From the NCBI GenBank assembly GCA_029561455.1, contig JAKQIY010000006.1:142860-206859 (forward strand): a stretch of 64,000 nucleotides of DNA, written 5' to 3'. The stretch comes from a bacterium. Its GTDB lineage: Bacteria; Zhuqueibacterota; Zhuqueibacteria; Residuimicrobiales; Krinioviventaceae. The notes beneath the pieces were generated by a model that had not been told where the DNA came from, searched no databases, and saw only the letters and a program-made list of their open reading frames with translations. The translations under genes were made by a program, and so were the position numbers. Shown one piece after another: positions 25,056 to 46,120 of this stretch (the first letter of the stretch is position 1; each line of letters begins with the position of its first letter).

Positions 25056-25085
25056 CACAACTCCAAAAGCTGAAAAAGGGCTGTT

Positions 25086-26078: not shown

Positions 26079-26128
26079 TAGAGTTATTAATTTTTAAATA
26101 CAACTCCAAAAGCTGAAAAAGGACTGTT

Positions 26129-27127: not shown

Positions 27128-27174
27128 GTACATTTATTTTTATAAAAGCTACTTAAAATTGCAAAAGAGGGATT

Positions 27175-28241: not shown

Positions 28242-29744
28242 TTATCGCCAATCCGCCATTTGGGCATTAGTATAAAGTTGTTTGCGGTTTTCACCGTTGC
28301 TGTCCATCACCCATACGGATGACGCTGTTGAATTATCATTTGCCACATTAGTAAAAAGGATCTTGCCGCCATCGGGAGACCACACCGGATCCAGATCGTT
28401 GGTGCCGGCCGTTTTCTTGGATGAGATATTTGTCGTATCGCCGCTGCTGATATTAACGACAATCAGCTGCGCATCCAGCATTCTGCCGCTGCTCACCTGG
28501 TGCCCGGCAACATCACGATAATAGACAATTTTGTCCCCGGCCGGTGAAAATGACGGATGCCCCATAATTCCCGGCAAATTTTCCACAACCAGGGTCAAAT
28601 CGCCGTTATCCGGATTGACCAGGTAAATTTCACTATCCCATTCCTGCTCGCCAATTGTCAAAGCAACAATTTTATTGCTGACAGAGGTCCAATCCAAATC
28701 CCGGAAATGTCGCCCATCCGGTGCGGTGGCTATTTGCTGTAACTGCCCGCCGGTGGCGTCGATCTGGTACAATTTATTATAGTTGGCGTACAAAATTTTC
28801 TGCCCGTTACCGGCCCAGCAAAATCCTCTCCCATAATTAAAATAACCATCCACGGGTGTGGTGGTAATTTTTTGCACATTTGCGCCGTCGCGGTTCATGG
28901 TATAAATATGCGTTACAATATCCCGATCAGATGTAAAAGCGATTTTATCTCTGGTGGGGCACAGTTTGGGATACCAGTCCCGGCCTACAGCCCAGGTAAG
29001 TAGAATAGAATCGGTTCCGGCTGTATTGCCGGAATATATGTTATAATCGCCATCGCTGTTGCCGGCAAATAATATCGGGTAATCCGGTAACGGGAGGGTG
29101 GTAAAACTCCAGGCCGGTCCGTTAATTTCCGTTCCGCTCAAATCGCGCGCTACGATCTGCCAGTGATACGTGGTATTGTATAAAAGCCGGTTTAACGCGT
29201 AACTTGTATCTTGCAATTGCGAGGAAATAAGTTGGAATGCCGAATTGCCATTGCCCAAATATATATCAAAGCTTAATGTATCGTCATCATCCGGGTCCCG
29301 GCTACTCCAGGTCAACGACAACGAGATCGGTTGATTGACGGCGCCGTTGGCGGGAACCGGTTTTGATGGAATTGTTGGCGCATTATTGGCGGCAGCGCTT
29401 TTCGTTAACAGGATAGTGGCGATAGCCGTCTTGTGCTGTTTTACTTCTACAGATACAGACCCGGATTTATACCCGGTTTTAACTGCTTTAACGATATATG
29501 TATTTTCGCTGATATCTGTAAGAAAAAATTTTCCATCAGCATCGGTTATCACCGCGTCGCTGGCCGGGGAGGTAGTTATACTTGCTCCTGCCACCGGTAA
29601 ATTACTCTCCGCATCCAGCACTTGCCCGTTTATAGCGCCATTAGTTTCAGGCTCTACCGGGTCTTCGGTACATGAAAACCACCCCGCCATACACACCAGT
29701 AATCCATAGCAAACTAGCTTGATTATGCCTTTTTCCAATATCAT
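28242..29744 (-). CDS. TolB-like (PD40/WD40-like beta-propeller) lipoprotein with an N-terminal carboxypeptidase-regulatory-like domain.
   Basis: A lipobox is present (MAGWFSCTED). A CarboxypepD_reg-like segment is present (INGQVLDAESNLPVAGASITTSP...DADGKFFLTDISENTYIVKAVKTGYK). Several PD40-like repeat units follow (IAFTSDRDIVTHIYTMNRDGANVQKIT; NGDLTLV...; GGKILFTN...SVWVMDSNGENRKQL). Confidence 0.55.
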   Translation of the reverse strand: MILEKGIIKLVCYGLLVCMAGWFSCTEDPVEPETNGAINGQVLDAESNLPVAGASITTSPASDAVITDADGKFFLTDISENTYIVKAVKTGYKSGSVSVEVKQHKTAIATILLTKSAAANNAPTIPSKPVPANGAVNQPISLSLTWSSRDPDDDDTLSFDIYLGNGNSAFQLISSQLQDTSYALNRLLYNTTYHWQIVARDLSGTEINGPAWSFTTLPLPDYPILFAGNSDGDYNIYSGNTAGTDSILLTWAVGRDWYPKLCPTRDKIAFTSDRDIVTHIYTMNRDGANVQKITTTPVDGYFNYGRGFCWAGNGQKILYANYNKLYQIDATGGQLQQIATAPDGRHFRDLDWTSVSNKIVALTIGEQEWDSEIYLVNPDNGDLTLVVENLPGIMGHPSFSPAGDKIVYYRDVAGHQVSSGRMLDAQLIVVNISSGDTTNISSKKTAGTNDLDPVWSPDGGKILFTNVANDNSTASSVWVMDSNGENRKQLYTNAQMADWR

Positions 29745-29835
29745 TGGCTTGCGTCCCTTCCCTCACATGTTTTTTATTGTCAAGATAATAAATTCCGGAT
29801 AATATGCAAAACATTTTTCACTTTATTAACAATTA

Positions 29836-30996
29836 TTAATGATCCGGCCCGGAAATAAATATATCGACACGCCGGTTTTTAATTCTTCCTTCCGCACTAT
29901 TATTTTCGGTCAGCGGGGCATAACAGGACTGCCCGGCTGAAAGCAAATTTCGACCATCATAACCCGAAACCGCCTGTAGCACTTTAACAACCCGGGCCGA
30001 TCTTAATGCCGACAGTTCCCAGTTACTGAATTTGTTTTTCTCCAGTTCATTAGAAAATGGAACTGCATCGGTATGTCCAACTACCATTAACTGAAAATCA
30101 CTATTTTTTGGTTTTTTCAATACTTGTGCTAAACGAAACAAGGCTTCTTCACCCCTGAGACGTAAATAGTCGCTTCCGGAAATAAATGCACTTTTCCCCG
30201 CCAAAGTATAACATAATTTATTGCCATGCCAGGATAACAACACATCGCCATTAATAATATCAATATGCAATGCGGTTTGTAATTCTTCATACAACGATTG
30301 CAATGCTGCGGATATATGTCCCTCCGGCGGGTTTGTTCCCGGAACAACTAGAGTATGATAATCAAATTCCTCTTTCCCCTGTAACGATTGCGTCAACTCC
30401 ACTAATTGTATATCCCTGGCTTTCAGTTCTGCACGTAAATTCGTTATCACCTGGTTATCCTGCGTCACCTGTTCTTCCAACTCTACTACTTTATCCTGTA
30501 GTAATTTAAAATTATCTGCAATCTGTTCCTGGGCTTGGTTTTCTGTAATATTACTAAAGGTTCCTGCCGCTATTGAACTTGTTTCCTTTGCATCAGCCGG
30601 TTTTAAAAAACCGGCGCGGATATAAACCCTGCCGGTTTGGTTTTTTCCTGTGGCCTTTAGATTAATAAATCCCTGATGTTCAATTTTTTGACCCTCAGGA
30701 ATGATAATAAATACTGTCAGCTTTTTTTTCTGACCGGCGCTTATTTCAACCCGTTTTGGGGATACCTCGAGCCAGGTAGTATCATAATCTGTTTCCACCC
30801 TGAGACCGGCTTTACCACTGTTGGTAACCTCCACCTCGCGTATCTCCAACCCACCCTCCGGCATAATAACTTCAATTTGTAAGGGCTCTATGAGTAATGC
30901 CGGTTCACAATAACTGTTAACAGCGCTAATTAACAGTATTAACGCCAGAATTATAAATATAGTATTTTTCACTTTTTCCTGCTCTGCAAATATCAA
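29836..30996 (-). CDS. OmpA/MotB-family protein with an OmpA-like C-terminal peptidoglycan-binding domain.
   Basis: The C-terminus reads VVGHTDAVPFS...SNWELSALRSARVVKVL...GQSCYAPLTENNSAEGRIKNRRVDIFI, a canonical OmpA_C-like block. There is an N-terminal signal or TM segment and a central coiled-coil. Confidence 0.7.
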   Translation of the reverse strand: MIFAEQEKVKNTIFIILALILLISAVNSYCEPALLIEPLQIEVIMPEGGLEIREVEVTNSGKAGLRVETDYDTTWLEVSPKRVEISAGQKKKLTVFIIIPEGQKIEHQGFINLKATGKNQTGRVYIRAGFLKPADAKETSSIAAGTFSNITENQAQEQIADNFKLLQDKVVELEEQVTQDNQVITNLRAELKARDIQLVELTQSLQGKEEFDYHTLVVPGTNPPEGHISAALQSLYEELQTALHIDIINGDVLLSWHGNKLCYTLAGKSAFISGSDYLRLRGEEALFRLAQVLKKPKNSDFQLMVVGHTDAVPFSNELEKNKFSNWELSALRSARVVKVLQAVSGYDGRNLLSAGQSCYAPLTENNSAEGRIKNRRVDIFISGPDH

Positions 30997-31111: not shown

Positions 31112-32416
31112 TTAATTGTTTTGGTTAACTATTGAAATATTATAATCGCCATACTGATTAATTGTCGATTGATGTAAATCACCGGTCTGGGTGGTAATAG
31201 CGCCGTTATAATCACCAATGTGGTAATTGGTTGCCTTGTTAAAATCACCGGTCTGTATGATAGTAATAGGATCCGGGTTACTATCGGAACCGCCAATGTC
31301 GAGCGTACCATTGTTATTATGCTCACCGAGCGTCAAATTAAATGCCTTGTTATTGTTGCCTGTTTGCAAAGTGAGGTGTTTGTTCTCATAATTATAACCA
31401 CCACCTACCCGTGATTCCGAATAATTGGAATTGCCGGTTTGTTCCACAACGGATGAATTGTTGCCACCCCAAAAATATAGTTTGGATACATTATCATCAC
31501 CAATTTGCTGAACAAAGCCATAATTGGCATCATCATATCGCTGGTCAAAACGGGCGTCGTTACGGTTGCCGGTTTGAATGATCTTGCCTTCGTTATCATC
31601 ACTGTCGCCATCCAGCCCTTGCTGCAGAATATTGGTGTTATCGCTACCGGTTTGTACTGATGCAGCCAGGTTGTTACTTTGGGCCTGGGAGATGGTTGAT
31701 TTATTTCTACCGGCTGTACCGGTCGCCAGGGGCGCGATGCTTTGTGAAGCGGTGTTATTATCTCCAATCTGGCTGATTAACCCTTTATTGTTGTGATCCA
31801 GAAAAGTGAACCCGGATGCGTTCATTGTCTGGGTCGATTTATTCATACTACCGTTTTGCAGAGATTCAAAATAGTTACCACTACCGGCCGGAATGCCGCC
31901 CACACCGAGGTTCTGAAAAGCATCGTTAGCTGTGCCGGTTTGAGAAATTTTTACTTCACTACCACCGGCGTGTACGCGGGTACTAGCAATATTAAGAGCT
32001 CCCTGCTGAAACACATTCGAGGTATTGCTGTTACGCTCATGGCGTACAGTAGCCTGGTTTTCAGTGCCTTCCTGTATAACCGTAGAGTTGTGATTGTCGT
32101 GATGCATCATATAAACATCTGCATCATTACCATCACCTGTCTGGTTTACCTGGGCATGCATACCACCCCAGGGACTGGAAACCTGTTCAACCTTGGTTTC
32201 ATTTGCATTGCCGGACTGGGTTATGTCAACCGAATTATAATTGGAATTTGCCGGGACGTCTTTGGATTGAATGACAGACACCTGGTTTCCGGAACCAGCC
32301 TGATCAACAGTTGCGGCATTATTTGCCCCGGTCTGATCCAGAGATGTATTGTTCCCGGCCGCCAGGGTTAGCGTAATCATTAAAAACAGACAAACGGGTA
32401 TAAAAAGACCTTTCAT
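31112..32416 (-). CDS. Curlin-repeat (CsgA/CsgB-like) secreted protein, 434 aa.
   Basis: A signal peptide is present. The body is N/Q/G/T-rich with degenerate repeats of the curlin type, Q.G..N.A...Q (VDQAGSGNQVSVIQ, ITQSGNANETKVEQ, VNQTGDGNDADV, ISQTGTANDAFQ, IIQTGNRNDARFDQ, VEQTGNSNYSE, IIQTGDFNKATNY). It lies in the same operon as csgEFG. Confidence 0.65.
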   Translation of the reverse strand: MKGLFIPVCLFLMITLTLAAGNNTSLDQTGANNAATVDQAGSGNQVSVIQSKDVPANSNYNSVDITQSGNANETKVEQVSSPWGGMHAQVNQTGDGNDADVYMMHHDNHNSTVIQEGTENQATVRHERNSNTSNVFQQGALNIASTRVHAGGSEVKISQTGTANDAFQNLGVGGIPAGSGNYFESLQNGSMNKSTQTMNASGFTFLDHNNKGLISQIGDNNTASQSIAPLATGTAGRNKSTISQAQSNNLAASVQTGSDNTNILQQGLDGDSDDNEGKIIQTGNRNDARFDQRYDDANYGFVQQIGDDNVSKLYFWGGNNSSVVEQTGNSNYSESRVGGGYNYENKHLTLQTGNNNKAFNLTLGEHNNNGTLDIGGSDSNPDPITIIQTGDFNKATNYHIGDYNGAITTQTGDLHQSTINQYGDYNISIVNQNN

Positions 32417-32450
32417 TATTTAACTCCTTGAAAAATTATAATATCAGTCC

Positions 32451-33395
32451 TTAATTTGTGCGTGTTACCTTGACAATACTGCCGTTACCGGTTTGGGTGA
32501 TAATTCCACCTAACCCGCTGCCAAAAACATTCAATTCGCCATAATGGTTGGCGCCATACTGGTTTATTTGTAACCGGTCGGCGTCTCCATCCTGGTTAAT
32601 ATCGCTTTTACCGTTATTTAATCCGATAGAGGTAATATAGGCTGTATTATTTCCTCCGTTTTCCTGGGATATTTTAGCATTGCTGCCGGTATCGCTATTA
32701 CTATTTAATGGATTGACCAGGTTTATCGCTGCCGTATTATTGCTGATCATTCCCTCACGACCCTGTTCGATGGTGGCGGAATGATTATCGCCAACCAACA
32801 AAATACTTACCGGCTGGGTATTGCTACCATTATAACTGCCATTGCTGATAATTGTGGCTTTATCTTCCTGCGAACGGCTTTGGTTACCGGCAATCAAGAT
32901 CAGAGAATTATTATGGTTGCCATCCTGACTGATTGTAGCTTCACCCCGATTCGATGGCCAGAGAATTTTTTCCTCGGCATTATTATAATTACCGGCCTGG
33001 GAAATAATTGCCGAGGAGGCATCGGCCGTTGTTACCTGGGAAGCCAGGTTCCAGTTCCCGGTTTGGGTAATTTTTTGCATGCCCAAATTGTTGCCGGCAA
33101 GATGGTTTTGGCTTGCTTCATTCCTGTAACCCTTTTGTGTGATCTGCTGTTTGTAGGCATTATAAACATCAAATGAAGAATTTAACTGAAATGCTTCATT
33201 GCGGGAACCGTTCTGTTCAATAAGCGATACCGAATTGCTGACTTTTTGAATAACATTAACAGCATTCTCAAATCCGATTTGCTCGATCATCACCTGGTTA
33301 TTATTACCGATCTGATCAATTGTGGCGGTTTGCTGAGCATTCCCGGGTGGACAAAAAAACAAGATCAGGATCGCAGGATAGCATAATTTCTTCAT
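32451..33395 (-). CDS. Curlin-repeat (CsgA/CsgB-like) secreted protein, 314 aa.
   Basis: Clear curlin repeats are present: ATIDQIGNNNQVMIEQIGFENAVNVIQ; IEQNGSRNEAFQ; ITQKGYRNEASQ; ITQTGNWNLASQ; ISQAGNYNNAE; ISQDGNHNNS; INQDGDADRLQINQYGANH. A signal peptide is present. Confidence 0.75.
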   Translation of the reverse strand: MKKLCYPAILILFFCPPGNAQQTATIDQIGNNNQVMIEQIGFENAVNVIQKVSNSVSLIEQNGSRNEAFQLNSSFDVYNAYKQQITQKGYRNEASQNHLAGNNLGMQKITQTGNWNLASQVTTADASSAIISQAGNYNNAEEKILWPSNRGEATISQDGNHNNSLILIAGNQSRSQEDKATIISNGSYNGSNTQPVSILLVGDNHSATIEQGREGMISNNTAAINLVNPLNSNSDTGSNAKISQENGGNNTAYITSIGLNNGKSDINQDGDADRLQINQYGANHYGELNVFGSGLGGIITQTGNGSIVKVTRTN

Positions 33396-33561
33396 TTCAT
33401 CCTCGAAATATTTACCAGCTTTTTAATTCATAATTGTTTTTATTGACTCAGTCAATGTAATTAGCATATTATTATGATAATGTGATTTTTGGTTTATTTA
33501 AACACGGCAGCAACACAAGCTGCCGTGTTCACTATTTGTGCCTTATATCTGCTTGTCGATT

Positions 33562-34587
33562 CTATGGATTCTGTGTTACGATTGCCTGATTGTTATTACC
33601 GGTTTGGGTAATTGTTCCGGTATGACCTGTACCAGTGGACAGAATTGAGGCAATATTGTTATCGCCGATTTGGGATATAGAACCCTTGTTCAAATCGCCG
33701 GTCTGGCTGATATCGGCAATATTATTGTTGCCGCCAATAAACTCGGTAGCATCGTTTTTATACCCATCCTGGGCAATTGTAGCGGTATTAAAATCACCAT
33801 AATATGTCGATGGCAAGTGCTGAAATGCTTTATTCGAACCGGTTCCGTATTGTTCCACTTTAGCCAGGTTATTATCACCGTTTATCCATTGTGTCACATT
33901 ATTACTGTTACTGGATGATAGCGCTGTGCCCTGAACAATAATAGTCTCATTAAAGGAACCAACTACCGCGGTGCTCGCTTTATTGGCCGTACCAAATTGT
34001 TCCATTGAACCTTCATTTTCGGAGCCTCTTTGGTTTAACCCTGCGGTATTGTTTGACCCTTCCTGATCTATATAAGCGCTATTCAGATAACCGCCATACT
34101 GTACCAGTTCGGTTACCTGGTTATTGTCGCCATTGATTTGGTTGATAATTGCGGAATGCCCTTCGCCATTTTGCTTGACAGCCGGGTTATAGGCATAGAC
34201 AAAATCGCCAACCTTATTATTATTACCAACCTGCGTAATAACTGTTGAATTGGCATTACCATTTTGCTGAACCGCTTCGGTTACACCGGTGGCGGTACGA
34301 AACTGGCTGACTTTATTTCCCGTGCCGTTTTGCTGAATATCGACCATATTTGCCGAACCAACCTGATTCACACCCAGGGCTGCCGGTTCGGAAGGAGTGC
34401 CGACGATATTGCCATCTCCGCCGCCCTGGTCGATCGCCGATATATTATCAGTTCCGCTTTGATTGACTTTAGCATAATTTGAACCAGATGCCTGATTTAC
34501 TGTTGAGCTATTTCCGGCAGCTAAAACAAAACTGGCCAGGACCATTACAAGTAATATAATAAATCTTGTTTTCATCATCATCCTCAC
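33562..34587 (-). CDS. Curlin-repeat (CsgA/CsgB-like) secreted protein, 341 aa.
   Basis: A signal peptide is present. The repeats include VNQASGSNYAKVNQSGTDNISAIDQ, VNQVGSANMVDIQQNGTGNKVSQ, VQQNGNANSTVITQVGNNNKV, IDQEGSNNTAGLNQRGSENEGSMEQFGTANKA, ISQTGDLNKGSISQIGDNNIASI and ITQTGNNNQAIVTQNP. Confidence 0.7.
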   Translation of the reverse strand: MRMMMKTRFIILLVMVLASFVLAAGNSSTVNQASGSNYAKVNQSGTDNISAIDQGGGDGNIVGTPSEPAALGVNQVGSANMVDIQQNGTGNKVSQFRTATGVTEAVQQNGNANSTVITQVGNNNKVGDFVYAYNPAVKQNGEGHSAIINQINGDNNQVTELVQYGGYLNSAYIDQEGSNNTAGLNQRGSENEGSMEQFGTANKASTAVVGSFNETIIVQGTALSSSNSNNVTQWINGDNNLAKVEQYGTGSNKAFQHLPSTYYGDFNTATIAQDGYKNDATEFIGGNNNIADISQTGDLNKGSISQIGDNNIASILSTGTGHTGTITQTGNNNQAIVTQNP

Positions 34588-34662
34588 TTGAACATTCTTC
34601 CAAAAGTATCAATTTAATTCAAATTTAACGAGCGGGAACCTCCATGTTCCCGCTTGCCATTA

Positions 34663-36522
34663 TTATGGCTGTTGAATGATTTGACTGAAATTGTTGACAC
34701 CGTTAACCATAATAGTGCCCGACTGGCCAATACCGGTTTGCTGAATTGCCGCAATATTAGTATCGCTGGAACCTAGCAGATCAATATCCGCAATGTGATT
34801 ATCGCCGGCCTGGCTTGTGGCAATGACGTTTCCTGAACCACTTACATTAATAAATGAATCATTGCTTTCACCATGCTGACCCTGAATCGAAGCGTTATCA
34901 TTACCAACAATTCCCAAAGTCGCTTCATTGGCGCCGCTGGTACTCCATACGGTGTATTGTTGCGCCTGGGTGGTTTTATTGCCATCGCCGGCAACATCTA
35001 TTACAGCTTTGCTGTAACGTCCATCCTGGAACTGAGAATAAACTCCATTGGTAACATCGGCCGCCTGAGGGCCAGTCCAGGAAAGTGCAAGCGGACTGGC
35101 AAGACCGGTAGCGGCAACATCAACAGATGCTGCCCCGGTATTATTATTACCGACATGTTTGACATTAATTTCCGAAGCCATGCCGCCTTTGCTTAACTGA
35201 TTGGCATTATTAAGATTACCTTCCTGGAAGACCAGCATTTTCTGAATACCATAGCTGCCAAAACTGGCTAATGTTTTTTGATCGGCAACGTTCTCATTGC
35301 CAATCTGCTTGATCTCAATGGCCATATAGCCTTTGTTTGCATTGGTGCGATGATAGGTAGAATTCAATTCCTGAGAGCCCTGGTTCAAATCGCCGGTTTG
35401 GAAAATTCCGGCTTCCCCGTTATTGCTGTTCATATCTATCAAAGCATCATTAGTATTGCCGGTTTGTACAACATAAGCTCCTTCCTTCCAGTCCGAAGCA
35501 TAACCCGGTTGATAATAGTTATTAACGGGAGCGCCGGATGCGCCTTGTGCAACGACTGCTTTATTACCGTTACCGCCATTCTGATCCACATCGGCATAGT
35601 TACGGCCATATTGCTGCACAGAAGCATTATGACTGTTACCTACCTGATCTACGGTGGCGATATTCTGGTTGCCAATCTGGTCAACATCAGCAAAATCACT
35701 GTTCCCGGTCATTGTAGTTGTTGCCAGGTTCATATCACCCAGTTGATAAGTATTGGCGATATTATCTGCTCCGGCGCTGATTTGTGATGCATTGTTCAGA
35801 TTACCATCCTGTAGTATATCCCCTTTCTGGTTATGGCCCAGGCCACTGCCGGAAAAGGTTTGACCAGCGGTATTATCATCGCCAAACTGATCAATATTTA
35901 TACCGCCGCTGTATCCATGATTGCTGCCGGTTATATTCTGGGTAGCGGCGTTACGGTCGCCAACAGTATAAATATACCCATGACTGTGGTTTGCCGACAT
36001 GGTTTGCGTGGCAGTATTATCATCGCCGATCTGGTCAACCTCAAAAGAATTGGTATAACCGGCAGAAATTGTTTGTGTGGACAAATTGCCGGCGCCTTGT
36101 TGATAAGCATTTACGGTCTGACCACTGTTGTATCCCGGAGCATAGGTGCTTTGTATTGCGGTATTGGTGGTTCCATCCTGTTCAATCGTCGCCCGGTTAG
36201 TGGAGTGACCACCGCCGCCGGTTTCAGTTTGATCGACATCAGCTACATTGCCTGTGCCGGTTTGTTTGACGTTGGCAATTTGCTGCCCGACCGGGGTATT
36301 TGATGCTGTTTCTACCTGGTCGACTGTAGCCGTATTAGCGCCATCCTGTTGCACGGTTATCTGGCCATTATCACCGGTTTGGTTGGTTGTGGTTACATTA
36401 GAACCGACCTGTGTTACATTAGTAGTATTATTATTGCCGTTCTGATTGTTGGTGTTGGTATTGGCGGCGTAGCTAAAGCCGACGAACGATAAACAAATTA
36501 TTAGAATAATAAATTTTTTCAT
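34663..36522 (-). CDS. Giant curlin-repeat protein, 619 aa.
   Basis: A signal peptide is followed by dozens of curlin-type units (VTQVGSNVTTTNQTGDNGQITVQQDGANTATVDQ; VDQIGDDNTATQ; IDQFGDDNTAGQ; VDQIGNQNIATVDQVGNSHNASVQQYGRNYADVDQNGGNGNKA; IFQTGDLNQGSQ; IKQIGNENVADQ). E. coli CsgA is 151 aa. Confidence 0.7.
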   Translation of the reverse strand: MKKFIILIICLSFVGFSYAANTNTNNQNGNNNTTNVTQVGSNVTTTNQTGDNGQITVQQDGANTATVDQVETASNTPVGQQIANVKQTGTGNVADVDQTETGGGGHSTNRATIEQDGTTNTAIQSTYAPGYNSGQTVNAYQQGAGNLSTQTISAGYTNSFEVDQIGDDNTATQTMSANHSHGYIYTVGDRNAATQNITGSNHGYSGGINIDQFGDDNTAGQTFSGSGLGHNQKGDILQDGNLNNASQISAGADNIANTYQLGDMNLATTTMTGNSDFADVDQIGNQNIATVDQVGNSHNASVQQYGRNYADVDQNGGNGNKAVVAQGASGAPVNNYYQPGYASDWKEGAYVVQTGNTNDALIDMNSNNGEAGIFQTGDLNQGSQELNSTYHRTNANKGYMAIEIKQIGNENVADQKTLASFGSYGIQKMLVFQEGNLNNANQLSKGGMASEINVKHVGNNNTGAASVDVAATGLASPLALSWTGPQAADVTNGVYSQFQDGRYSKAVIDVAGDGNKTTQAQQYTVWSTSGANEATLGIVGNDNASIQGQHGESNDSFINVSGSGNVIATSQAGDNHIADIDLLGSSDTNIAAIQQTGIGQSGTIMVNGVNNFSQIIQQP

Positions 36523-36623
36523 TTCTTTTCCCTCTTTCTTCCAATTTTAAATTACCATCCATGGCATCATTTATCTTTCTCGAATCCTGAAAAAGGTTGT
36601 ATAAAACATCAAACCGGGTTTAT

Positions 36624-37499
36624 TTAATTCGTTTGTTTAATAACCGCATTATTATTATTGCCGGTTTGTGTTGTCGACGCATTATGGGCATTGCCATACT
36701 GAAATGATTGTGCCGTATTCCAGTCGCCGGTTTGAGTTATTATTGAATAATTATTTTCCGATCCGGGCGTAGTTGCCGATTTATCCATATATTCCTCTGC
36801 AGTATTATTATTTCCGGATTGCACTACAAAACCCTGGTTACCACCGGTATGGCTCCAACCCCATTGTCCGCCAGCCATAATTTGATTGGAATAATTTTCA
36901 ATGCCAGTTTGGGTAGCGCTCAAGCTGGAATGGTCATTCACAGTTCCGCTTCCCAAAACCTGCCACGCTTCATTACCCATGCCGTTATCGCCGCCGCCGC
37001 CATTACCACTTTGAATTATGGTCGCGCCAAGCACGCTGCCATTGATGTGCTGGTTAGCGTAATGGTCGTCGCCGGTTTGGGTAATAGTACCGGTCGATTG
37101 ATTACGTAATTGGTTAATATAAGCTTCATTAAACGAACCGGTTTGGCCTACATTCGCCAGAGCATAATCATTCACATTTTGATTGATATCTGAAATATTC
37201 ATATCACCAAGTTGATTGACTACTGCCTGGGAAGGAGTGCTGCCGCCATAAGCCCCACGATATTGATCTACATCGGACCAGTTATTATTCCCGGTCTGCT
37301 GCACCGTGGCGGTAATGCCGGAAGAATAATACGTATAATCCGTTTTGGTCTGATCAACCGTACTGGTATTACTGGAACCAGTTTGTGTAGTAGTAGCTTG
37401 ATGGTTTTTGCCGGTTTGATTGATGCTCGATGAATTGCTGGCAGCAAGGACAAAACCGGCGAAAACAAGAACAAACAATAAAAGTATTAACTTTTTCAT
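36624..37499 (-). CDS. Curlin-repeat (CsgA/CsgB-like) secreted protein, 291 aa.
   Basis: A signal peptide is present. Repeats include INQTGKNHQATTTQTGSSNTSTVDQ, VQQTGNNNWSDVDQ, VNQLGDMNISDINQ, INQL...ITQTGDDHYANQ, VVQSGNNNTAEE, ITQTGDWNTAQSFQYGNAHNASTTQTGNNNNAVIKQTN. Confidence 0.65.
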   Translation of the reverse strand: MKKLILLLFVLVFAGFVLAASNSSSINQTGKNHQATTTQTGSSNTSTVDQTKTDYTYYSSGITATVQQTGNNNWSDVDQYRGAYGGSTPSQAVVNQLGDMNISDINQNVNDYALANVGQTGSFNEAYINQLRNQSTGTITQTGDDHYANQHINGSVLGATIIQSGNGGGGDNGMGNEAWQVLGSGTVNDHSSLSATQTGIENYSNQIMAGGQWGWSHTGGNQGFVVQSGNNNTAEEYMDKSATTPGSENNYSIITQTGDWNTAQSFQYGNAHNASTTQTGNNNNAVIKQTN

Positions 37500-37689
37500 A
37501 ATGACTACCTCTGTACTTTTACTCTTACCCGGTTTAAAGAATTATTGGTTTTGAATCACAATCGTAATATTAGTGATTCCGGTTTGAATAGCATTACCGG
37601 AATTATTGGTTGTAAATTCAAACCCGGTAAGATAAAATTGATACATAAAAATTTTCATTATTACACTATCCTGTAGAATTATTAAATAA

Positions 37690-38610
37690 TTATGGATAGG
37701 TTTGGTTAACTGTGGCGTTGTTGCCGGTGCCATTCTGCATAACAGTGGCTTTATTAACAAAGTCGCCATAATCGCCAAATAAACCGGTGCCGCCGTTTTG
37801 CACGACAGAAGCTGTATTGGAATCGCCAAGTTGATCAACATCGGACTTGTTAACATTCAGATTTTGGGTTACAGAGGCAGTGTTGTAATTACCGGCCTGG
37901 TAAATACCAAAATCATGATTACTGAACAGTCCTTTGCCGGTTTTATTATCATCGCCGGTTTGAGTTACTTCAGCATAGTTTCCTTGTGCGTTTTTGGCCC
38001 CGCCAGTACCATATTGTACTATGGTAGCAGTATTCCATCTTCCAGTTTGGGTTTCAATAGCCGTATTGCCAACTACCCAGCCGCCGCCGCCCTGTTCATC
38101 GACAACCGCAATATTTGCAGTTCCATCCTGAACTTGCCGTACATACCCGTTAAAACCGGTTTGATAAGAATTAGCTTCATTAGAGTTACCAATTTGATCC
38201 TGGTCAACTGTAGAGGAAACAGTGTGCTGCCAGGCAGTCACTTTATTGGTATTTCCTTCCTGGTATTGAGTGCCGGTGTTGCCACCGTTGCCGCCATCAG
38301 CTAATTGCCATAAAGTGGCCTGGTTATTGTTGCCATGTTGTTCCTGGGCGCCGGTCTCGCCAACAACTGTTGACCCAGCCGGCCAGCCGCCTTTTTGATC
38401 CAGATCGGCCACGTTGCCGGATCCATCCTGAATTTGGGTTGCAGTGCTGGTATTGGCTATTTGTTCAATAGTAGCCGCATTGCTTGAACCGGTCTGTGAA
38501 GCAGAGGCGGTGTTGCCCGAACCGGTTGTCGATATTGTTGCAGAATTGCTGGCCGCAAATACAAATCCGGCCATTGCTAAACAGAGTATAAAGGTAAACA
38601 GGGTTTTCAT
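37690..38610 (-). CDS. Curlin-repeat (CsgA/CsgB-like) secreted protein, 306 aa.
   Basis: A signal peptide is present. Repeats include ASQTGSSNAATIEQ, IQDGSGNVADLDQ, QEQHGNNNQATLWQ, VDQDQIGNSNEANSYQTGFNG, IVQYGTG...VTQTGDDNK, VDQLGDSNTASVVQNG. It is a close paralog of the next gene, with the same N- and C-termini (...ATVMQNGTGNNATVNQTYP). Confidence 0.7.
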   Translation of the reverse strand: MKTLFTFILCLAMAGFVFAASNSATISTTGSGNTASASQTGSSNAATIEQIANTSTATQIQDGSGNVADLDQKGGWPAGSTVVGETGAQEQHGNNNQATLWQLADGGNGGNTGTQYQEGNTNKVTAWQHTVSSTVDQDQIGNSNEANSYQTGFNGYVRQVQDGTANIAVVDEQGGGGWVVGNTAIETQTGRWNTATIVQYGTGGAKNAQGNYAEVTQTGDDNKTGKGLFSNHDFGIYQAGNYNTASVTQNLNVNKSDVDQLGDSNTASVVQNGGTGLFGDYGDFVNKATVMQNGTGNNATVNQTYP

Positions 38611-38642
38611 GATAAACCTCTCTTTTTGTTTAATTTATGTTT

Positions 38643-39545
38643 TTATGGATAGGTCTGGTTTACATTGGCAGAATTGCCATTGCCGTTTTGCATAACTGTG
38701 GCGCTGTTTACAAATGCGCTGAATGCGCCGGTATCGCCGGTTTGATTAATAACTGCATTGTTGGAATCGCCAATTTGATCGACATCGGAAAGGTTGGCAT
38801 TTAAATTCTGGTTAACAAAAGCAGTATTAAAATTTCCTTGCTGATAAATACCCCAGTCGTATTGATTATAATAGCCATCTCCGGTTTTATTGTTATCACC
38901 GGCTTGATTTATTTCCGCCGAGTTGCCTAAAGCAGTTTTTGCAGCGCCTGTTCCATACTGTACAATATTGGCTTTATTGTTTACACCGGTTTGTTTTTCA
39001 ATTGCGGAATTTCCATCGCCGCCGCCCTGTTCATCGACAAAGGCGCTGTTTCCAGTTCCAGTCTGATATTGTTGAACATAACCATTATAACCAACCTGGA
39101 AAGAATTAGCGACATTGGAATTACCAATCTGATCCTGATATGTTTTACTGCTGCCGGTATATTGCCAGGCAGTCGCTTTGTTGCTGTTACCCTCCTGGTA
39201 TTGCCGGGCGTCGTTGCCGCCTTCATTTTCGTTGGCTAATTGTAACAATGTGGCCTGGTTGCTATTGCCATGCTGTTCCTGGGCGCCGGTCTCCCCTACG
39301 ACTGTTGATCCGGCTGGCCAGCCGCCTTTTTGATCCAGATCGGCAACGTTGCCGGTCCCATCCTGTATCTGGTATGCCGAACTGGTGTTGGCAATTTGTT
39401 CAATACTGGCGCCATTGCCGGAGCCGGTTTGCGAGGCCGAAGCGCTGTTCGCGTTCCCGGTGGTCGATATAGTGGCGGTATTGCTGGCGGCATACATAAA
39501 TCCAGCCACTGCCAGACAGATGATAATAGTGAAGAATGTTTTCAT
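38643..39545 (-). CDS. Curlin-repeat (CsgA/CsgB-like) secreted protein, 300 aa. It is the first curlin subunit gene after csgG.
   Basis: It is a paralog of 37690-38610. The repeats include SASQTGSGNGASIEQ, QEQHGNSNQATLLQ, VDQIGDSNNAVINQTGD and ATVMQNGNGNSANVNQTYP. A signal peptide is present. Confidence 0.7.
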   Translation of the reverse strand: MKTFFTIIICLAVAGFMYAASNTATISTTGNANSASASQTGSGNGASIEQIANTSSAYQIQDGTGNVADLDQKGGWPAGSTVVGETGAQEQHGNSNQATLLQLANENEGGNDARQYQEGNSNKATAWQYTGSSKTYQDQIGNSNVANSFQVGYNGYVQQYQTGTGNSAFVDEQGGGDGNSAIEKQTGVNNKANIVQYGTGAAKTALGNSAEINQAGDNNKTGDGYYNQYDWGIYQQGNFNTAFVNQNLNANLSDVDQIGDSNNAVINQTGDTGAFSAFVNSATVMQNGNGNSANVNQTYP

Positions 39546-39666: not shown

Positions 39667-41091
39667 CTAATAATATTTGATTCCAAACTTGAAACTCCAA
39701 AAATAATCATCCAGTTTGCCATGCAGTATTCCGTCCATGTAATCCGTAAAAGTATACTGGTTTTCAAATAAAAAATTGAAACTGACCTGGCGGGAAACAA
39801 AGCATTCCAGTCCGGCGCCGCCGGCAATAACAGGTTCCCAGCCATTAAAGCGTTTCTCCCTGCTTATTTGTTCTCCTGCTTTATCTCTGACTTTAAAATT
39901 CATAACACCGCCGCCGGCATACACAAATGGCCTTAAACTGCTTTTAGGCCACATATTATAAAATCCCTGTAACTGGGCTAATGCCAGGTCGGTATAAAAG
40001 TTATCACGATTTGCCAGCCGGCCGGCGCTGGCATTGAGCGCCAAAGCGAAGCGGGGATGTAAACCATAACTAATCGTAACATCGCCGCCGGGTCGCAGCC
40101 GGGGATTGGCATAATCACCCTGGTATAACTGGCTGCTGAAGTTGAGCGAAAATGCCAGGCCCTTGTCGTAACCAAACGCCGGAGCTTCGTTAAATGCGGT
40201 TTGTTCCTGACCAAACGCAGAATACCGCTCGCTGTTTTCTTTCTCTACCAGGTAATTTTGGATAATAGGTGATTTGATGTCTTCAGGATTTTTTAATTCC
40301 CAGTTTTTGGTAATAATTCCTTCGCAAATCAAACTCAAAACGCCTTTTTCAATCGCTTCTAAAACACACATCTGCGGGGGTTCATTGGTGCTGTAACCGC
40401 TTTCAATCTCAAGCAAGCGTTTTTCCCGGATAAACCGGTACAGACTGAAATCTACGGCTTTGGATAGGATAGTTTTAGTGGTTGTTACATTATTTAAAAT
40501 CCGTCCCGTTTTTGTGGCAACGGTGCGCAGGTAGATATTAACCTGGTCGCTGCGGAATTCTGTATGACCGCCCAAACCAAAATAGCGGGCGCCAAATCCG
40601 CCGGTTAATGTATTGGTTTCGTAGGAAATGATCCCGCCTTCAAGGGTAACGCCGGCGTAAAGCAGCGGCGGTAATGGGGGAAGTTTATTTCCCTGGTCAT
40701 CGGTATAATTATCGCGGGTGGCGGTGATTATTTTTCGTTCATTTAAAAGATTGGAAATACCTTCGCGTTCAACTACAATGAACCAGCCGGAATCCTCAAG
40801 CGATTTTAACAACATAGACGTGGCGCCCTGGGTGACGGCTGTCGACCAGGTCATGCCGGTAGCAGAGGCTTTGTATTGACCGGTTTGATCGCGGAATTTG
40901 TAAACTGCTATGACGATTTTTTCTTTGGGCTCGGGTAAAGAAATCAACTCTTTATGTACTGATGTAACATAAGTAATGGCTGCCGGTGTACTATGTACCG
41001 GGTTCATATTGCGAAATTGTGGCGAGCAACCAACAGTTAATATTATTAATGCTGTGAGCAGGAAAAAGCCTTTAGCTCTTTTATTATTCAT
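39667..41091 (-). CDS. csgG: Curli production assembly/transport lipoprotein CsgG with an extra C-terminal beta-barrel-like domain.
   Basis: A lipobox is present (LTVGCSP). Residues ~55-290 align with E. coli CsgG by eye: YKFRDQTGQYK.../IQDETGQFK; GATSMLLKSLEDSGWFIVVEREGISNLLNERKII / SATAMLVTALKDSRWFIPLERQGLQNLLNERKII; GGFGARYFGLGGHTEF / GGVGARYFGIGADTQY; ESGYSTNEPPQMCVLEAIEKGVLSLI / EVGYTSNEPVMLCLMSAIETGVIFLI. A further ~190 aa follow that E. coli lacks. They end ...FKFGIKYY, which looks like a small OMP beta-barrel. Confidence 0.85.
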   Translation of the reverse strand: MNNKRAKGFFLLTALIILTVGCSPQFRNMNPVHSTPAAITYVTSVHKELISLPEPKEKIVIAVYKFRDQTGQYKASATGMTWSTAVTQGATSMLLKSLEDSGWFIVVEREGISNLLNERKIITATRDNYTDDQGNKLPPLPPLLYAGVTLEGGIISYETNTLTGGFGARYFGLGGHTEFRSDQVNIYLRTVATKTGRILNNVTTTKTILSKAVDFSLYRFIREKRLLEIESGYSTNEPPQMCVLEAIEKGVLSLICEGIITKNWELKNPEDIKSPIIQNYLVEKENSERYSAFGQEQTAFNEAPAFGYDKGLAFSLNFSSQLYQGDYANPRLRPGGDVTISYGLHPRFALALNASAGRLANRDNFYTDLALAQLQGFYNMWPKSSLRPFVYAGGGVMNFKVRDKAGEQISREKRFNGWEPVIAGGAGLECFVSRQVSFNFLFENQYTFTDYMDGILHGKLDDYFWSFKFGIKYY

Positions 41092-41531
41092 TACAGACCC
41101 TCGCCATTGTAGTATGGTAATTCGATAGTTGTGGTGCCGCCGGTGGAAGGATCGCTGATCTCTATACGCAGCCCCTGTTCAGCGGGAATGACATCAATAG
41201 TATAATCGCCAATTTCATAATGCCCTTCTTCCAATTCCGATTCACCGAATATCTGCGTAACCAGTTTACTGGAAAGCCGGCTCAGAATTTGCCGGTTTAT
41301 ACTGTCGGTAAAATCTTCCAGGGGGTCGCTGGCCTGATAGGAATAAGAACTGGCTTTATCCCCGGTCTTGTCCTGCAGTTGTGCAGAACTTAACAGCCAC
41401 GAAGCATTATATGGATTTCCGCCAAAATTAGGGTTTACAAAGGTATGGACTAATTCTGTGGTGTAACCGGGTAAAACAGAAAACAGAATCAAGCCTAGAA
41501 CGCAAAAAACACCAAAACAGCTCTTGTTCAT
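41091..41531 (-). CDS. csgF: Curli assembly protein CsgF.
   Basis: A signal peptide is followed by [29 protein letters not shown], which matches E. coli CsgF [27 protein letters not shown]. Also [11 protein letters not shown] matches NFTQAIQSQIL, and [29 protein letters not shown] matches [29 protein letters not shown]. The ATGA start/stop overlap with csgG indicates translational coupling. Confidence 0.8.
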   Translation of the reverse strand: [146 protein letters not shown]

Positions 41532-41542: not shown

Positions 41543-42115
41543 CTAATAAATACCTGTTCCAGCCATATCGTCGCCGGCCATTTGTTTTTGATCCTGAGTG
41601 TAATTAACCAGATAATTGCCGGTAAAACCAGTTGCCTGCCTGGCAGCCTCTTCGATTTCGTCGGATCTTGGCGTTAATCGGTTTTGGTAAATAGAAATAT
41701 CGTTAATATTTATGAAAACCCAGCTGCCGGATTGCCCGGTCGGCATTTCTGAAATATAAATTGTATAATCATAAACCCCGGCAGGAGGCTCCCAGAGGGT
41801 ATAAAAATACTCATAAAATTCCTGACCGATTTTGGTTTTGGTATCGTTAATTATCAGTCCATCAATTTCCAATACATCGCCCGGACGAGTATTTTTTACA
41901 GTCTCAGTTTGTTCTGTTTCTTTAACAGTATCAGCCTGCTGCTGGACTTCCTGCCGGGCTTCCTGCAGTAATTTTTCCAGCAACGCTTTGGTGTTCTGTG
42001 ACTTTTTTTCTTTATCGCTGACTGTTGTACTATCGTTTGTTTGCGTATAAAGGGGTACAGTCATCATAAAAACACACAGCATCGTAACTAAAGTACTGGT
42101 TACACATTTTTTCAT
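41543..42115 (-). CDS. csgE: Curli production assembly/transport component CsgE-like protein.
   Basis: A signal peptide is present. LEIDGLIINDTKTKIGQEFYEYFYTLWE matches E. coli CsgE [28 protein letters not shown], and GSWVFININDISIYQNRL matches GSWITITVNQDVIFQTFL. It is the first gene of the E-F-G order and lies 12 bp upstream of csgF. Confidence 0.65.
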   Translation of the reverse strand: MKKCVTSTLVTMLCVFMMTVPLYTQTNDSTTVSDKEKKSQNTKALLEKLLQEARQEVQQQADTVKETEQTETVKNTRPGDVLEIDGLIINDTKTKIGQEFYEYFYTLWEPPAGVYDYTIYISEMPTGQSGSWVFININDISIYQNRLTPRSDEIEEAARQATGFTGNYLVNYTQDQKQMAGDDMAGTGIY

Positions 42116-42751
42116 AAATTTTTCAGGTGCAGCGAATTAATAAAAGGAACAAGTAATCCCCTTTTTCATCCCACACCCGACTCGCCCTTAATATGATATG
42201 AACCAGGAAATTAACATTATTATATGTCTAGTTTTTTTATTAATTCAAGCACTATGCCAGGTAGAAATTCAGATCTATTGGACAATAACCCCTATGTTGA
42301 TATTTTTCAAATATTTGTAAATGTTCTTATTTCGTAAATATCTTCGAGGAATGGAATTTGTGTTTCCTGACTGAAACAGGTTGATGACAATAATGCTATA
42401 ACATCATAAAAAACATAAATCAAGCAATTGTACTAAAAATGACACAAAAAAGCATCATTCGTGTAATTCGGAAAAATTTGTAATTATACCTGTAATAAAA
42501 AAAAACAAACAATTAAAACAAAAATGATCATTAAAAATACTCAACTTTAGATTGCCAGGTAAGTTATTTGAAAATTAAAGATGATGAGGTTTTAGAGCGG
42601 GACCTTGACAGTACGATTCACTCTTTTTTAACCAGAAGCATAAATTTTTAAAATTATAGCTTCTGGTTCACAATCTCCCGATTGGGAACCCGCTTGTACA
42701 AAATCTCTGATTTGATATGCAAAAATTATATAAAAAAATAACTGCTTTAAA

Positions 42752-42801
42752 GGAATCGGAGATTCCTGACCACTTTCGTTCCTGAACGGGAAATCAGGAA
42801 C
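42752..42801 (-). terminator. Candidate intrinsic terminator of two tandem hairpins for the minus-strand operon 44765->42882.
   Basis: Two perfect hairpins are present: GTTCCTGA-ACGGGAAA-TCAGGAAC (42778-42801) and GGAATC-GGA-GATTCC (42752-42766). Read on the minus strand, they are followed by a T-rich run (the reverse complement of 42721-42750). Confidence 0.3.
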
Positions 42802-42881
42802 TAAGAAACAATGATTGTAAATTACTTGCTTATTGAAATGAACTCTTTAATCACGCCGTTTCCCGGTGTCATTAATACTAT

Positions 42882-43055
42882 CTAAAAGGACAACAGCGAA
42901 TCCGTCTCGTTCTCCACCCGTTTGCGCGTTACATACACTACAAAGCCATCCACCCCGGAGCCGTCATAATCCACTTCCAGAGATACCTTGCTGCGACTCT
43001 GGATGATCTTGTGCAGCAGCCGGATGATCTGCGGTATACTCAACTTGCCGCTCAT
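42882..43055 (-). CDS. Hypothetical small protein, 57 aa.
   Basis: It reads MSGKLSIPQIIRLLHKIIQSRSKVSLEVDYDGSGVDGFVVYVTRKRVENETDSLLSF. Its ATG overlaps the TGA of the upstream small gene (ATGA), which indicates translational coupling. It is not in the ORF track, and I did not recognise a family (it faintly resembles DUF2283). Confidence 0.35.
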   Translation of the reverse strand: MSGKLSIPQIIRLLHKIIQSRSKVSLEVDYDGSGVDGFVVYVTRKRVENETDSLLSF

Positions 43056-43400: not shown

Positions 43401-44765
43401 TCAATTCTCCACCCCCAACAACCTTCTTGCCCCCCGCACCGCGCCGTTGCGGCCATCCCCATCGGCGATAACCTGCAACAATCCCGCCGCACGGTTGATA
43501 CCCTTGATCCGCTTTTTCGGCAAAAATCCCCCATTACGCACCAGGTGGACAAACTCTTCTTCATCGATCATCCCCATTTCAAACATGCGCTGGTAAGCGT
43601 TCAACTCCTTGTCCAGCGCCGTGGCGTTCAGCAGCCGCGCCCGCGCCTGTTCCGTCTTGTCGAGCAGATTAACCTCTTTCCATTCCAGCTTCCAGTTCGC
43701 CCCGGCCTCGCCGCGCAGGATCAAAAACGTATCCACCACGCGACGTATAATCGGGTCGATTTTCGTCCGGTACGAGTTGATATTCGCAACGATCATATCG
43801 TTCTGGTTATTGCTCATCCGCTCGGTCGTCGTCCACTTGTACAGACCGAACATAAACGGCGGCAGTCCCGTTTTGGTTATGATTTCCTCCTGCGCCGTAT
43901 GCACCGGCACTTGCAGGTTCAATATGGTATCCTGTCCGCCGAGTATTTTCACGTCGATACTGGCCCCCTCCGGCACGGCCGCGGCTACATCCCGCACACT
44001 CCCCCTGCGCCGAGCCCGGAACACCTCGGTAATATCATTCTGCAAATCCTCCGCCGCTTTTTTTACGCGCCCGAAATCGCCCCCGCGGCCCCCTTGCACC
44101 GTCACCAGGAAGGTCGGGTCCCCCACCCGCCATACCTGGTTTTCGATAGCCTGCTGGATGCGTAAAAAGATTTTCACCACAAACGGCAGCGAATAAAACA
44201 GACTGTATCCCTGCGGATGCCCGTCCCGCTGATCAAAACTGAGATAATAGATGAAATCCTGGTTGGCAAACGGCAGCACATTAAACACCCCCTCGCGCGC
44301 CTGACCCAGCAGCAAACAACCGTTGCGCTCCACAAAGCGGAAATCGTTGGCACGGGCGATCTTGAGCTGCTCCACATCATCCAGCATTTCGGACGGCACC
44401 AGTTCCCCAAAACCCATGCCTTTAGCCAGCGCCGAATCGCACAACTGGTCCACCCACGTATTCAGGCCCGAACTGAAATGGTTCACCCGTACGCCGGACT
44501 TGAACGCGTTCAGCAACTGCTGCACGCGCGGATCTTGCGCGGTCAACTCAAAATCGCCGATCAGCCGCACCAGCTTGATTACCGCCACATCCAAAAGCGG
44601 CACCGCCTCGCGCATCAGGTCGTACAAGTCCAGGTTGAACTTTAATGGCTGATAACCTTGCAGCGCCAGCGCAAAAGGATTCTCCCACGCATCGCGCGTC
44701 TGTGTCCGACTGCTTTTGGCGGACTCTTCCCGCCCCGCAAACCACCTGCTAAAAGGATTTCGCAT
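43401..44765 (-). CDS. Hypothetical soluble protein, 454 aa, family not recognised. It has a vague phage-portal-like feel.
   Basis: The ORF is intact with no signal or TM segment. It has a Gly-rich loop (VQGGRGGDFGRV). It is the first gene of a three-gene minus-strand operon. Confidence 0.6.
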   Translation of the reverse strand: MRNPFSRWFAGREESAKSSRTQTRDAWENPFALALQGYQPLKFNLDLYDLMREAVPLLDVAVIKLVRLIGDFELTAQDPRVQQLLNAFKSGVRVNHFSSGLNTWVDQLCDSALAKGMGFGELVPSEMLDDVEQLKIARANDFRFVERNGCLLLGQAREGVFNVLPFANQDFIYYLSFDQRDGHPQGYSLFYSLPFVVKIFLRIQQAIENQVWRVGDPTFLVTVQGGRGGDFGRVKKAAEDLQNDITEVFRARRRGSVRDVAAAVPEGASIDVKILGGQDTILNLQVPVHTAQEEIITKTGLPPFMFGLYKWTTTERMSNNQNDMIVANINSYRTKIDPIIRRVVDTFLILRGEAGANWKLEWKEVNLLDKTEQARARLLNATALDKELNAYQRMFEMGMIDEEEFVHLVRNGGFLPKKRIKGINRAAGLLQVIADGDGRNGAVRGARRLLGVEN

Positions 44766-45490: not shown

Positions 45491-46120
45491 ATGCAAAACT
45501 CAAATAAATATATTGCCATCATCGGCGATCTGGTCAACTCCCGCGCCATGACCAACCGCAACGAGGTGCAAAATGCGTTGATCAATACCCTGAACACTAT
45601 CAACTCCAGCGATCTCAAACAACATATCGCCGCCAAATTCGTTATTACCCTCGGTGATGAATTCCAGGGACTGGTAACGCGTAATTTCCCCCTTCACCCT
45701 TTTCTCGAATTATATCATTCCGGCCTGCCCGCCAATGTCGCTACCCGCTTTGGTATCGGCCTGGGAGAATTGGCCACCGAATTAAAAAGCGAAACCATCG
45801 GTATGGACGGCCCCTGCTTTCACAACGCCCGCTCTGCAATTACCAGGGCTAAAAACGAAAATATCAACCTTATCTTTCAGGGTTTCGAAATGAATACCGC
45901 TCTCAATGCCTTGTATCATAACATTAACAATATTACCCAAAACTGGAAAGCCAGACAACTGCAAGTTATCTCGCTTTATAAAGATACGGAAGATCAAACG
46001 AATGTTGCAAAAAAAATGAAAATATCAAGACAAGCGGTTCATCGTATTTTAAAAGCAGCAAAATATGACCTGGTGCAAACCGGCTGGGATGGTGTACAAG
46101 AACTATTCTCCTTTATTTGA
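45491..46120 (+). CDS. SatD-like protein with a C-terminal helix-turn-helix, a putative regulator.
   Basis: The N-terminal YIAIIGDLVNSRAM resembles the signature I recall for SatD-family proteins. The C-terminal KMKISRQAVHRILKAAK is HTH-like, sigma-70 region-4 style. Confidence 0.45.
   Translation: MQNSNKYIAIIGDLVNSRAMTNRNEVQNALINTLNTINSSDLKQHIAAKFVITLGDEFQGLVTRNFPLHPFLELYHSGLPANVATRFGIGLGELATELKSETIGMDGPCFHNARSAITRAKNENINLIFQGFEMNTALNALYHNINNITQNWKARQLQVISLYKDTEDQTNVAKKMKISRQAVHRILKAAKYDLVQTGWDGVQELFSFI

Follow-up and report, generated by a model that had tools for sequence, protein, structure and literature searches.

CsgG fused in one reading frame to a predicted eight-stranded outer-membrane beta-barrel in a bacterial curli locus

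The DNA analysed here, hereafter the window, is a stretch of 64,000 nucleotides (contig JAKQIY010000006.1 of assembly GCA_029561455.1, positions 142,860 to 206,859) that contains a curli, i.e. type VIII secretion, locus. Its csgG gene consists of one uninterrupted open reading frame (ORF), in which a lipoprotein signal and a CsgG channel domain are followed by a linker and a second, C-terminal domain predicted to be a complete outer-membrane beta-barrel (Table 1). The gene forms a tight unit with csgE and csgF, the TAA stop of csgF and the ATG of csgG overlapping by one base (TAATG), and the curlin-repeat genes come next, with an OmpA-family and a TolB-like gene behind them. The same fusion is the usual form of CsgG in the FCB (Fibrobacterota, Chlorobiota, Bacteroidota) group, to which the present gene contributes just an ordinary member of a large clade.

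Table 1. Coordinates of the curli locus, of the parts of the fused csgG gene and of other genes in the window
Feature	Position	Strand	Size or residues	Evidence or remark
csgG-barrel fusion gene	39667..41091	minus	474 aa	ATG start; single ORF
Signal peptide and lipobox	41026..41091	minus	residues 1-22	...LIILTVG-C22-SPQ, read from sequence
CsgG channel domain	40252..41025	minus	residues 23-280	Pfam PF03783, E. coli CsgG alignment, Foldseek
Linker	40159..40251	minus	residues 281-311	AlphaFold2: helix to ~298, then low-confidence flexible stretch
Predicted 8-stranded outer-membrane beta-barrel	39670..40158	minus	residues 312-474	AlphaFold2 and Foldseek
Predicted extracellular loop L4	39706..39750	minus	residues 448-462	alignment and model; D450-x-x-D453-G-x3-G458-x3-D462
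csgF	41091..41531	minus	146 aa	Pfam CsgF 2.6e-41
csgE-like gene	41543..42115	minus	190 aa	Pfam CsgE 1.3e-24, residues 84-185
AT-rich non-coding region upstream of csgE	42116..42885	minus	~770 bp	no ORF >=60 aa; probable promoter/regulatory region
Seven tandem curlin-repeat genes	31112..39545	minus		Pfam Curlin_rpt 1e-13 to 6e-30; presumed substrates
Curlin-repeat gene	38643..39545	minus	300 aa	
Curlin-repeat gene	37690..38610	minus	306 aa	
Curlin-repeat gene	36624..37499	minus	291 aa	
Curlin-repeat gene	34663..36522	minus	619 aa	
Curlin-repeat gene	33562..34587	minus	341 aa	
Curlin-repeat gene	32451..33395	minus	314 aa	
Curlin-repeat gene	31112..32416	minus	434 aa	
End of curli string (OmpA-family and TolB-like genes)	28242..30996	minus		
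OmpA-family gene	29836..30996	minus	386 aa	C-terminal PF00691 and coiled-coil match
TolB-like gene	within 28242..30996	minus	500 aa	CarboxypepD_reg and PD40
Phage portal-like gene	43401..44765	minus		phrog_30703, E 2.5e-68
SatD-family gene	45491..46120			
Secreted protease cluster	899..20261	minus		five large proteases
S8 protease	899..3163	minus		
C25 gingipain-like protease	6404..10333	minus		
S8 protease	10355..14440	minus		
M6 protease	14497..17331	minus		
M6 protease	17442..20261	minus		
TPR/spermine-synthase/MFS fusion protein	3219..6314			
TonB-dependent-receptor-like gene	20462..22951			
Five tandem paralogs	22964..28215	plus	330-346 aa	weak N-terminal CarboxypepD_reg-like domain in four

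The csgG ORF terminates in ...FWSFKFGIKYY. Across the junction between its two halves (residues 260-330) the reading frame is open and both alternative frames are closed, a scan of the junction region for long homopolymers found none, and GC content as well as GC content at third codon positions (GC3) are similar in the CsgG half and the barrel half of the gene. Moreover, at least 10 contigs of independent assemblies (ENA, JGI, NCBI, Logan) encode exactly this 474-aa protein, and its neighbours on them are the same. The original prediction, made from the sequence alone, had described an uninterrupted ORF of this length and with the terminus FKFGIKYY that runs for about 190 residues past the end of E. 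coli CsgG. Its coordinates are exact, with the gene on the minus strand, and the extension measures ~185-190 residues, the E. coli chains stopping at query residue 280. A split into two genes by a stop or frameshift near position 40250, which the prediction had considered, is ruled out by the open frame and by the fusion in homologs.

In its first half the protein is a member of the CsgG family in all defining features that were tested. Residues 52-266 match Pfam PF03783 with 207 bits (gathering score 20.8), and a Pfam scan of the full protein returned nothing besides this domain. Chain residues 4-268 of the 277-residue E. coli precursor (6lqh, 3x2r, 4uv3) align with query residues 9-280 at an E value of ~3e-64, in a continuous alignment that spans both transmembrane hairpin regions and the constriction loop. 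Compared with the E. coli structures 4UV3, 3X2R, 6SI7 and 6L7A, the identity amounts to ~44% over residues ~45-280, both hairpin regions are present and the position of the E. coli constriction residue F56 is occupied by another aromatic residue (W). The first half of an AlphaFold2 monomer model (100-sequence alignment, mean predicted local distance difference test (pLDDT) 79) retrieved 4uv2, 4uv3, 6l7a and 6si7 in a Foldseek search of the PDB (E 1e-20 to 1e-14), with template modelling (TM) scores of 0.77-0.80 to 4uv2 and of 0.65-0.68 to the membrane form 4uv3/6l7a; the transmembrane hairpin segments have low pLDDT in this model. Like E. coli CsgG, the protein carries a lipoprotein signal with Cys, and at least 90% of 100 aligned homologs share this Cys22. 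A strict lipobox pattern is matched by 70 of 95 homologs whose N-terminus is complete. The NCBIfam equivalog profile for enterobacterial-type CsgG (PRK15184) is matched with 237 bits, under its cut-off of 505 bits, which is consistent with the generic name 'CsgG/HfaB family protein' at NCBI. The holdfast anchor HfaB was considered and rejected, the score being 41 bits against a cut-off of 300 bits (NF037935) for a gene that lies within a curli operon.

The main difference to E. coli CsgG is the additional ~185 C-terminal residues. In the model, a helix (residues 275-298) leads into a stretch with pLDDT <50 at residues 293-304, followed by eight strands with pLDDT of 92-98 (residues 312-324, 333-345, 348-361, 365-379, 386-403, 418-431, 436-447 and 463-473). 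The linker has a length of 20-36 residues among homologs (median 23) and is rich in E, K, R and D. According to this model, the extension is a closed, antiparallel eight-stranded barrel resembling the OmpA transmembrane domain. This agrees with the original prediction of a small outer-membrane protein (OMP) barrel or OmpA-like N-domain and speaks against a disordered extension, by which that prediction would have fallen. Foldseek matched the second half to the OmpA transmembrane domain (9fzc, 1bxw, 1qjp), NspA, the N-terminal domain of OprF (4rlc), Ail, OmpX and OmpW, reaching a probability of 1.0 for OmpA, NspA, OprF, Ail and OmpX; NspA (1p4t) superposes with TM 0.82 and a root-mean-square deviation of 2.9 Å. 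With the known eight-stranded barrels (1BXW/1QJP, 1P4T, 4RLC, Ail, OmpX, OmpW) the predicted structure shares the eight antiparallel strands, short turns, longer loops and a terminal aromatic residue at target-normalised TM scores of 0.65-0.82, whereas the sequence identity is just 9-16%. Strand 1 of OmpA begins at the periplasm. Assuming the same start here, the periplasmic turns comprise 2-6 residues and the outer loops 8, 3, 14 and 15 residues, the usual OMP pattern. The protein ends with a beta-signal-like motif, F-K-F-G470-I-K-Y-Y474, in which G470 is 97% and Y474 96% conserved among 100 homologs, and the pattern G-x-x-hydrophobic-aromatic occurs within the final 20 residues of 115 out of 119 homologs. 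No PDB chain spans both domains; the best query-normalised TM score is 0.42 and the sequence search led only to CsgG chains of 262-285 residues.

Profile searches gave a divided answer on the extension, for which the original prediction had suggested a comparison with OMP families. A Pfam search with the extension alone gave no match at E<=10, so that the gathering score of PF13505 (OMP_b-brl) is not attained by the query sequence; many orthologs, in contrast, have precomputed matches to this family, and P0005 reaches 40.6 bits against a gathering score of 28.7. The barrel should therefore be regarded as a divergent relative tied to PF13505 via its orthologs, and because Pfam is silent on the extension alone, the family assignment was taken from orthologs, exhaustive search and fold comparison. 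The exhaustive phmmer search with residues 285-474 against 1.84 billion representatives (E<=1e-3) gave only 174 matches of three kinds, i.e. C-terminal domains of ~460-480-aa proteins, which are the fusions, N-terminal domains of 310-500-aa proteins, and short proteins or fragments. The N-terminal type represents OmpA-family proteins, in which the barrel (PF13505 or DUF6089-like) is followed by PF00691, while many of the short 'stand-alone' matches are pieces of fused genes, such as P0130 and P0148, which begin inside the CsgG C-terminal helix. OmpA-family proteins of the FCB group (P0127, P0133, P0179) are the nearest non-CsgG sequence relatives (E 1e-15 to 1e-7); they share P388, G393, G425, G427, the D-x-x-D-G-x3-G-x3-D loop and G470 with the fused barrels, but have the barrel first and PF00691 after it and fall into a separate similarity group. 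OmpA-type and other known eight-stranded barrels are placed N-terminally on a peptidoglycan-binding protein or stand alone, whereas the barrel described here is attached C-terminally to a pore-forming lipoprotein.

A position-by-position comparison of the fused homologs with 98 non-CsgG relatives separated the traits of the whole family from those enriched in the fusion. P388, G393, G425, G427, D450, D453, G458, D462 and G470 are conserved to 87-100% in fused and to 81-99% in non-CsgG barrels. In predicted outer loop 1, the two tyrosines of a YxGDY motif (Y323 and Y327) reach 92-94% in the fused versus 23% in the non-CsgG barrels, and F365, Y430 and W465 reach 84-92% versus 34-47%. The acidic motif of loop L4, in which D450, D453 and D462 are invariant among 100 fused homologs, was considered as a fusion-specific trait and rejected, because these residues are 87-95% conserved in the non-CsgG relatives too; hence, this loop is a family-wide trait. 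An all-against-all comparison paired fused barrels with one another as best matches 140 times out of 156, and OmpA-type barrels 37 times out of 43. The CsgG-linked barrels therefore form a coherent subfamily, which points to a long co-inheritance with CsgG and would fit a single old fusion or a few of them. The neighbouring OmpA-family gene, whose N-terminus is unrelated to the CsgG-fused barrel, was rejected as source or paralog since it shows no similarity to it, and a second barrel copy was not detected elsewhere in the window.

The fusion is not a peculiarity of the analysed genome. Among the 120 nearest protein clusters (90% identity) both domains are present in 119, the remaining one being P0040 with 324 aa and no barrel. 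Likewise, among the best 80 of more than 560 stretches with relatives in GTDB species representatives, 79 encode the CsgG domain and, immediately behind it, the barrel as a single uninterrupted ORF, so that the extension is carried by the orthologous genes as the original prediction had thought worth checking. The exception (L029, 6001-6888, on a metagenome-assembled genome (MAG) labelled Thermodesulfobacteriota) encodes an unfused CsgG that is 64% identical to query residues 11-284 and has csgE and csgF upstream and a curlin gene downstream. L029 and P0040 belong to the closest CsgG-domain relatives (64-67% identity), and reflect either a secondary loss of the barrel or a transfer of the pre-fusion form. 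In P0005 (662 aa) the barrel occurs twice in tandem at the C-terminus (residues 305-474 and 492-660), hence the appended module can be duplicated. The fused form was found in Ignavibacteria, Melioribacteraceae, Calditrichia, KSB1 and many Bacteroidota, including the cultured Pontibacter arcticus, Marinifilum flexuosum DSM 21950, Hymenobacter spp., Solirubrum, Draconibacterium, Flavobacterium frigoris PS1, F. xanthum DSM 3661 and Prolixibacter denitrificans DSM 27267. Three fused loci (L002, L017, L033) are on MAGs labelled Saccharibacteria, Actinomycetota and Porticoccaceae, unexpected hosts for curli of the FCB type, and these labels are probably binning or labelling noise.

The genetic context is shared as well. 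In the related loci CsgF (77 of 80) and CsgE (74 of 80) are encoded immediately upstream of csgG in the same order as in the window, and 54 of 80 loci have a curlin gene in the flank. The locus in the window resembles E. coli in the adjoining csgE and csgF and the curlin-repeat genes beside them, but has seven curlin paralogs in place of csgB and csgA. These seven proteins represent an unusually large CsgA/B-like paralog set; up to six such paralogs are known from some genera (Dueholm 2012, PMC3521004). Among the locus genes scanned, no csgC, csgD or csgD-like regulator was recognised, and the AT-rich region upstream of csgE is, judged from its sequence, probably the promoter or regulatory region of the curli operon.

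What could be the function of the barrel? The reading that we favour, albeit with clear reservation, is that the FCB lineage uses a curli CsgG in which the barrel acts as an integral membrane anchor that BAM, the beta-barrel assembly machinery, inserts, and as an aid to assembly. By homology, the CsgG domain would oligomerise, nine-fold as in E. coli, with two hairpins per subunit giving a 36-strand pore, through which unfolded curlin subunits would be exported together with CsgE and CsgF. The charged linker, presumably periplasmic, would join the periplasmic C-terminal end of the CsgG domain to the barrel and appears long enough to reach the membrane plane. BAM would fold the barrel itself into the outer membrane via the beta-signal-like G470-x-x-Y-Y. 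In this way each lipidated subunit would be fixed beside its neighbours, and satellite barrels would surround the finished pore and help or stabilise its assembly; according to our own geometric estimate from the published size, nine barrels of ~25 Å could fit around the CsgG barrel. We infer the oligomeric state, the insertion route and the anchoring role from the homologies and the model described above. The topology fits, because both barrel ends face the periplasm, as does the C-terminus of CsgG. Since the lipobox Cys is kept in at least 90% of homologs, the barrel adds to the lipid anchor and does not replace it. A generic anchor module is further favoured by the finding that the barrel's closest non-CsgG relatives, with core residues in common, serve OmpA-family proteins as N-terminal membrane anchors. 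There are parallels in other BAM-independent multimeric pores such as the secretins GspD and PulD with their pilotins, or Wza, which also have an accessory anchoring element for membrane targeting (PMC13067283). However, those pores use a separate lipoprotein or an amphipathic segment as helper, whereas here a complete BAM-type barrel is covalently joined to every subunit.

Several points weigh against this reading. The arrangement of barrels and pore, their stoichiometry and the dependence on BAM are all predictions. Unfused CsgG works in Proteobacteria, and with L029 and P0040 close unfused relatives exist; therefore, a CsgG pore does not inherently depend on the barrel. Finally, the enrichment of Y323, Y327, F365, Y430 and W465 in the fused sequences hints at a fusion-specific role beyond anchoring. 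It is also conceivable, though we would put it forward only tentatively, that all these elements combine in a composite structure, in which a 36-strand pore is encircled by nine tethered 8-strand barrels (~108 strands), the BAM-dependent folding of the barrels nucleates or templates the pore, and YxGDY is part of a surface crown.

Alternatively, the barrel could be a functional surface module, whose loops form a crown at the pore exit that docks CsgF, CsgB or nascent curli, or binds lipopolysaccharide or divalent cations. The candidate loops would be YxGDY in loop 1 and the acidic motif in loop 4, and both the invariance of D450, D453 and D462 within a predicted outer loop and the strong preference of Y323/Y327 for fused barrels are in line with it. 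However, the acidic motif is equally found in OmpA-type and other non-CsgG barrels and thus is not curli-specific, and the contrast at the tyrosines is blurred by fragments of fused genes in the non-fused comparison set. We regard a surface function as rather unlikely. Lower still is the probability that we assign to the assumption that the barrel fixes topology or sorting in bacteria where lipoprotein trafficking differs from E. coli and Lol-type sorting would be insufficient, i.e. that it keeps CsgG at, or targets it to, the periplasmic face of the outer membrane. Lipoprotein sorting in Bacteroidota does differ from that in E. coli, the fusion is confined to FCB-group lineages among the genomes seen, and the organism in the window has cargo proteins of the type IX secretion system (T9SS) that are typical of this group. 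On the other hand, the conserved Cys22 indicates that lipidation is still used, and Alphaproteobacteria, which have an unfused CsgG, are not known to have a classical LolB either.

It is very improbable that the extension represents an OmpA-type periplasmic peptidoglycan-binding domain or an ortholog of the T9SS protein PorG. PorG is a small, 8-stranded barrel protein that goes along with a large secretion machine in this group of bacteria. NCBIfam names it as a component of the type IX secretion system, and its profile (NF052316) weakly matches residues 385-461. However, this match has 29 bits against a cut-off of 130 bits, PorG is a separate polypeptide from another operon and system, and the gene studied here sits in a curli operon, hence the similarity is an analogy and not membership. 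PF00691 was matched neither by the full protein nor by the extension in Pfam, and the fold corresponds to OmpA in its transmembrane barrel and not in the C-terminal domain. Least of all can we believe in an artefact, in which a sequencing or assembly error near 40250 lost a stop or shifted the frame and thereby joined csgG to a separate small OMP gene: no support for it was found, L029 and P0040 being the sole unfused close relatives, and it is refuted by the conservation of the fused ORF across homologs, besides the closed alternative frames, the homopolymer-free junction, the independent assemblies and the even GC and GC3 mentioned above.

Some other genes of the window deserve mention. The cluster of five large secreted proteases includes four with a T9SS sorting domain (Por_Secre_tail) just above the Pfam threshold, whereas the M6 protease at 17442-20261 shows only a weak match; these candidate cargo proteins suggest that the organism belongs to the FCB group and possesses type IX secretion. 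Between the first S8 and the C25 protease gene, a protein combining TPR, spermine-synthase and MFS parts is encoded. The TonB-dependent-receptor-like gene lies upstream of the five tandem paralogs. A lone phage portal-like gene adjoins the curli locus on its upstream side, lies in a segment with strongly negative GC skew and is overlapped by long antisense ORFs; no other phage structural genes were identified near it, and a SatD-family gene is situated in its vicinity.

A description of the CsgG-barrel fusion was not found in the searchable literature, subscription-only papers and patents being outside the search. In a survey of curli systems the size of CsgG was regarded as unaffected (Dueholm 2012, PMC3521004), and more recent work counted csgG genes without remarking on their architecture (Sleutel 2023, PMC10192328; 2025 review, PMC12822426). 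Nevertheless, the fusion is already visible in public protein collections through precomputed Pfam CsgG and OMP_b-brl matches. The 'new secretion-channel architecture' of the original prediction has thus to be qualified: Bacteroidota, Ignavibacteria, Calditrichia and KSB1 normally have CsgG in this form, cultured type strains among them, and it seems to be new only in being undescribed and lacking a solved two-domain structure, as far as can be searched.

CsgG is the model pore of type VIII secretion and serves as protein pore in commercial nanopore sequencing. It also belongs to the small number of outer-membrane beta-barrel pores for which assembly without BAM has been reported; for E. coli CsgG, as for Wza and GspD, independence of BamA is stated in section 1.2 of PMC13067283, which cites Dunstan 2015. 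A lineage-wide variant that couples each subunit to a BAM-type barrel offers a handle on the targeting, orientation and insertion of multimeric pores, and cultured and sequenced hosts for experiments exist in Pontibacter, Hymenobacter, Flavobacterium, Marinifilum and Prolixibacter. In Bacteroidota, Ignavibacteria and Calditrichia the curli machine differs in structure from the E. coli paradigm of reviews, and if the composite structure considered above were true, a pore that is BAM-independent in E. coli would be BAM-dependent in the FCB lineage.

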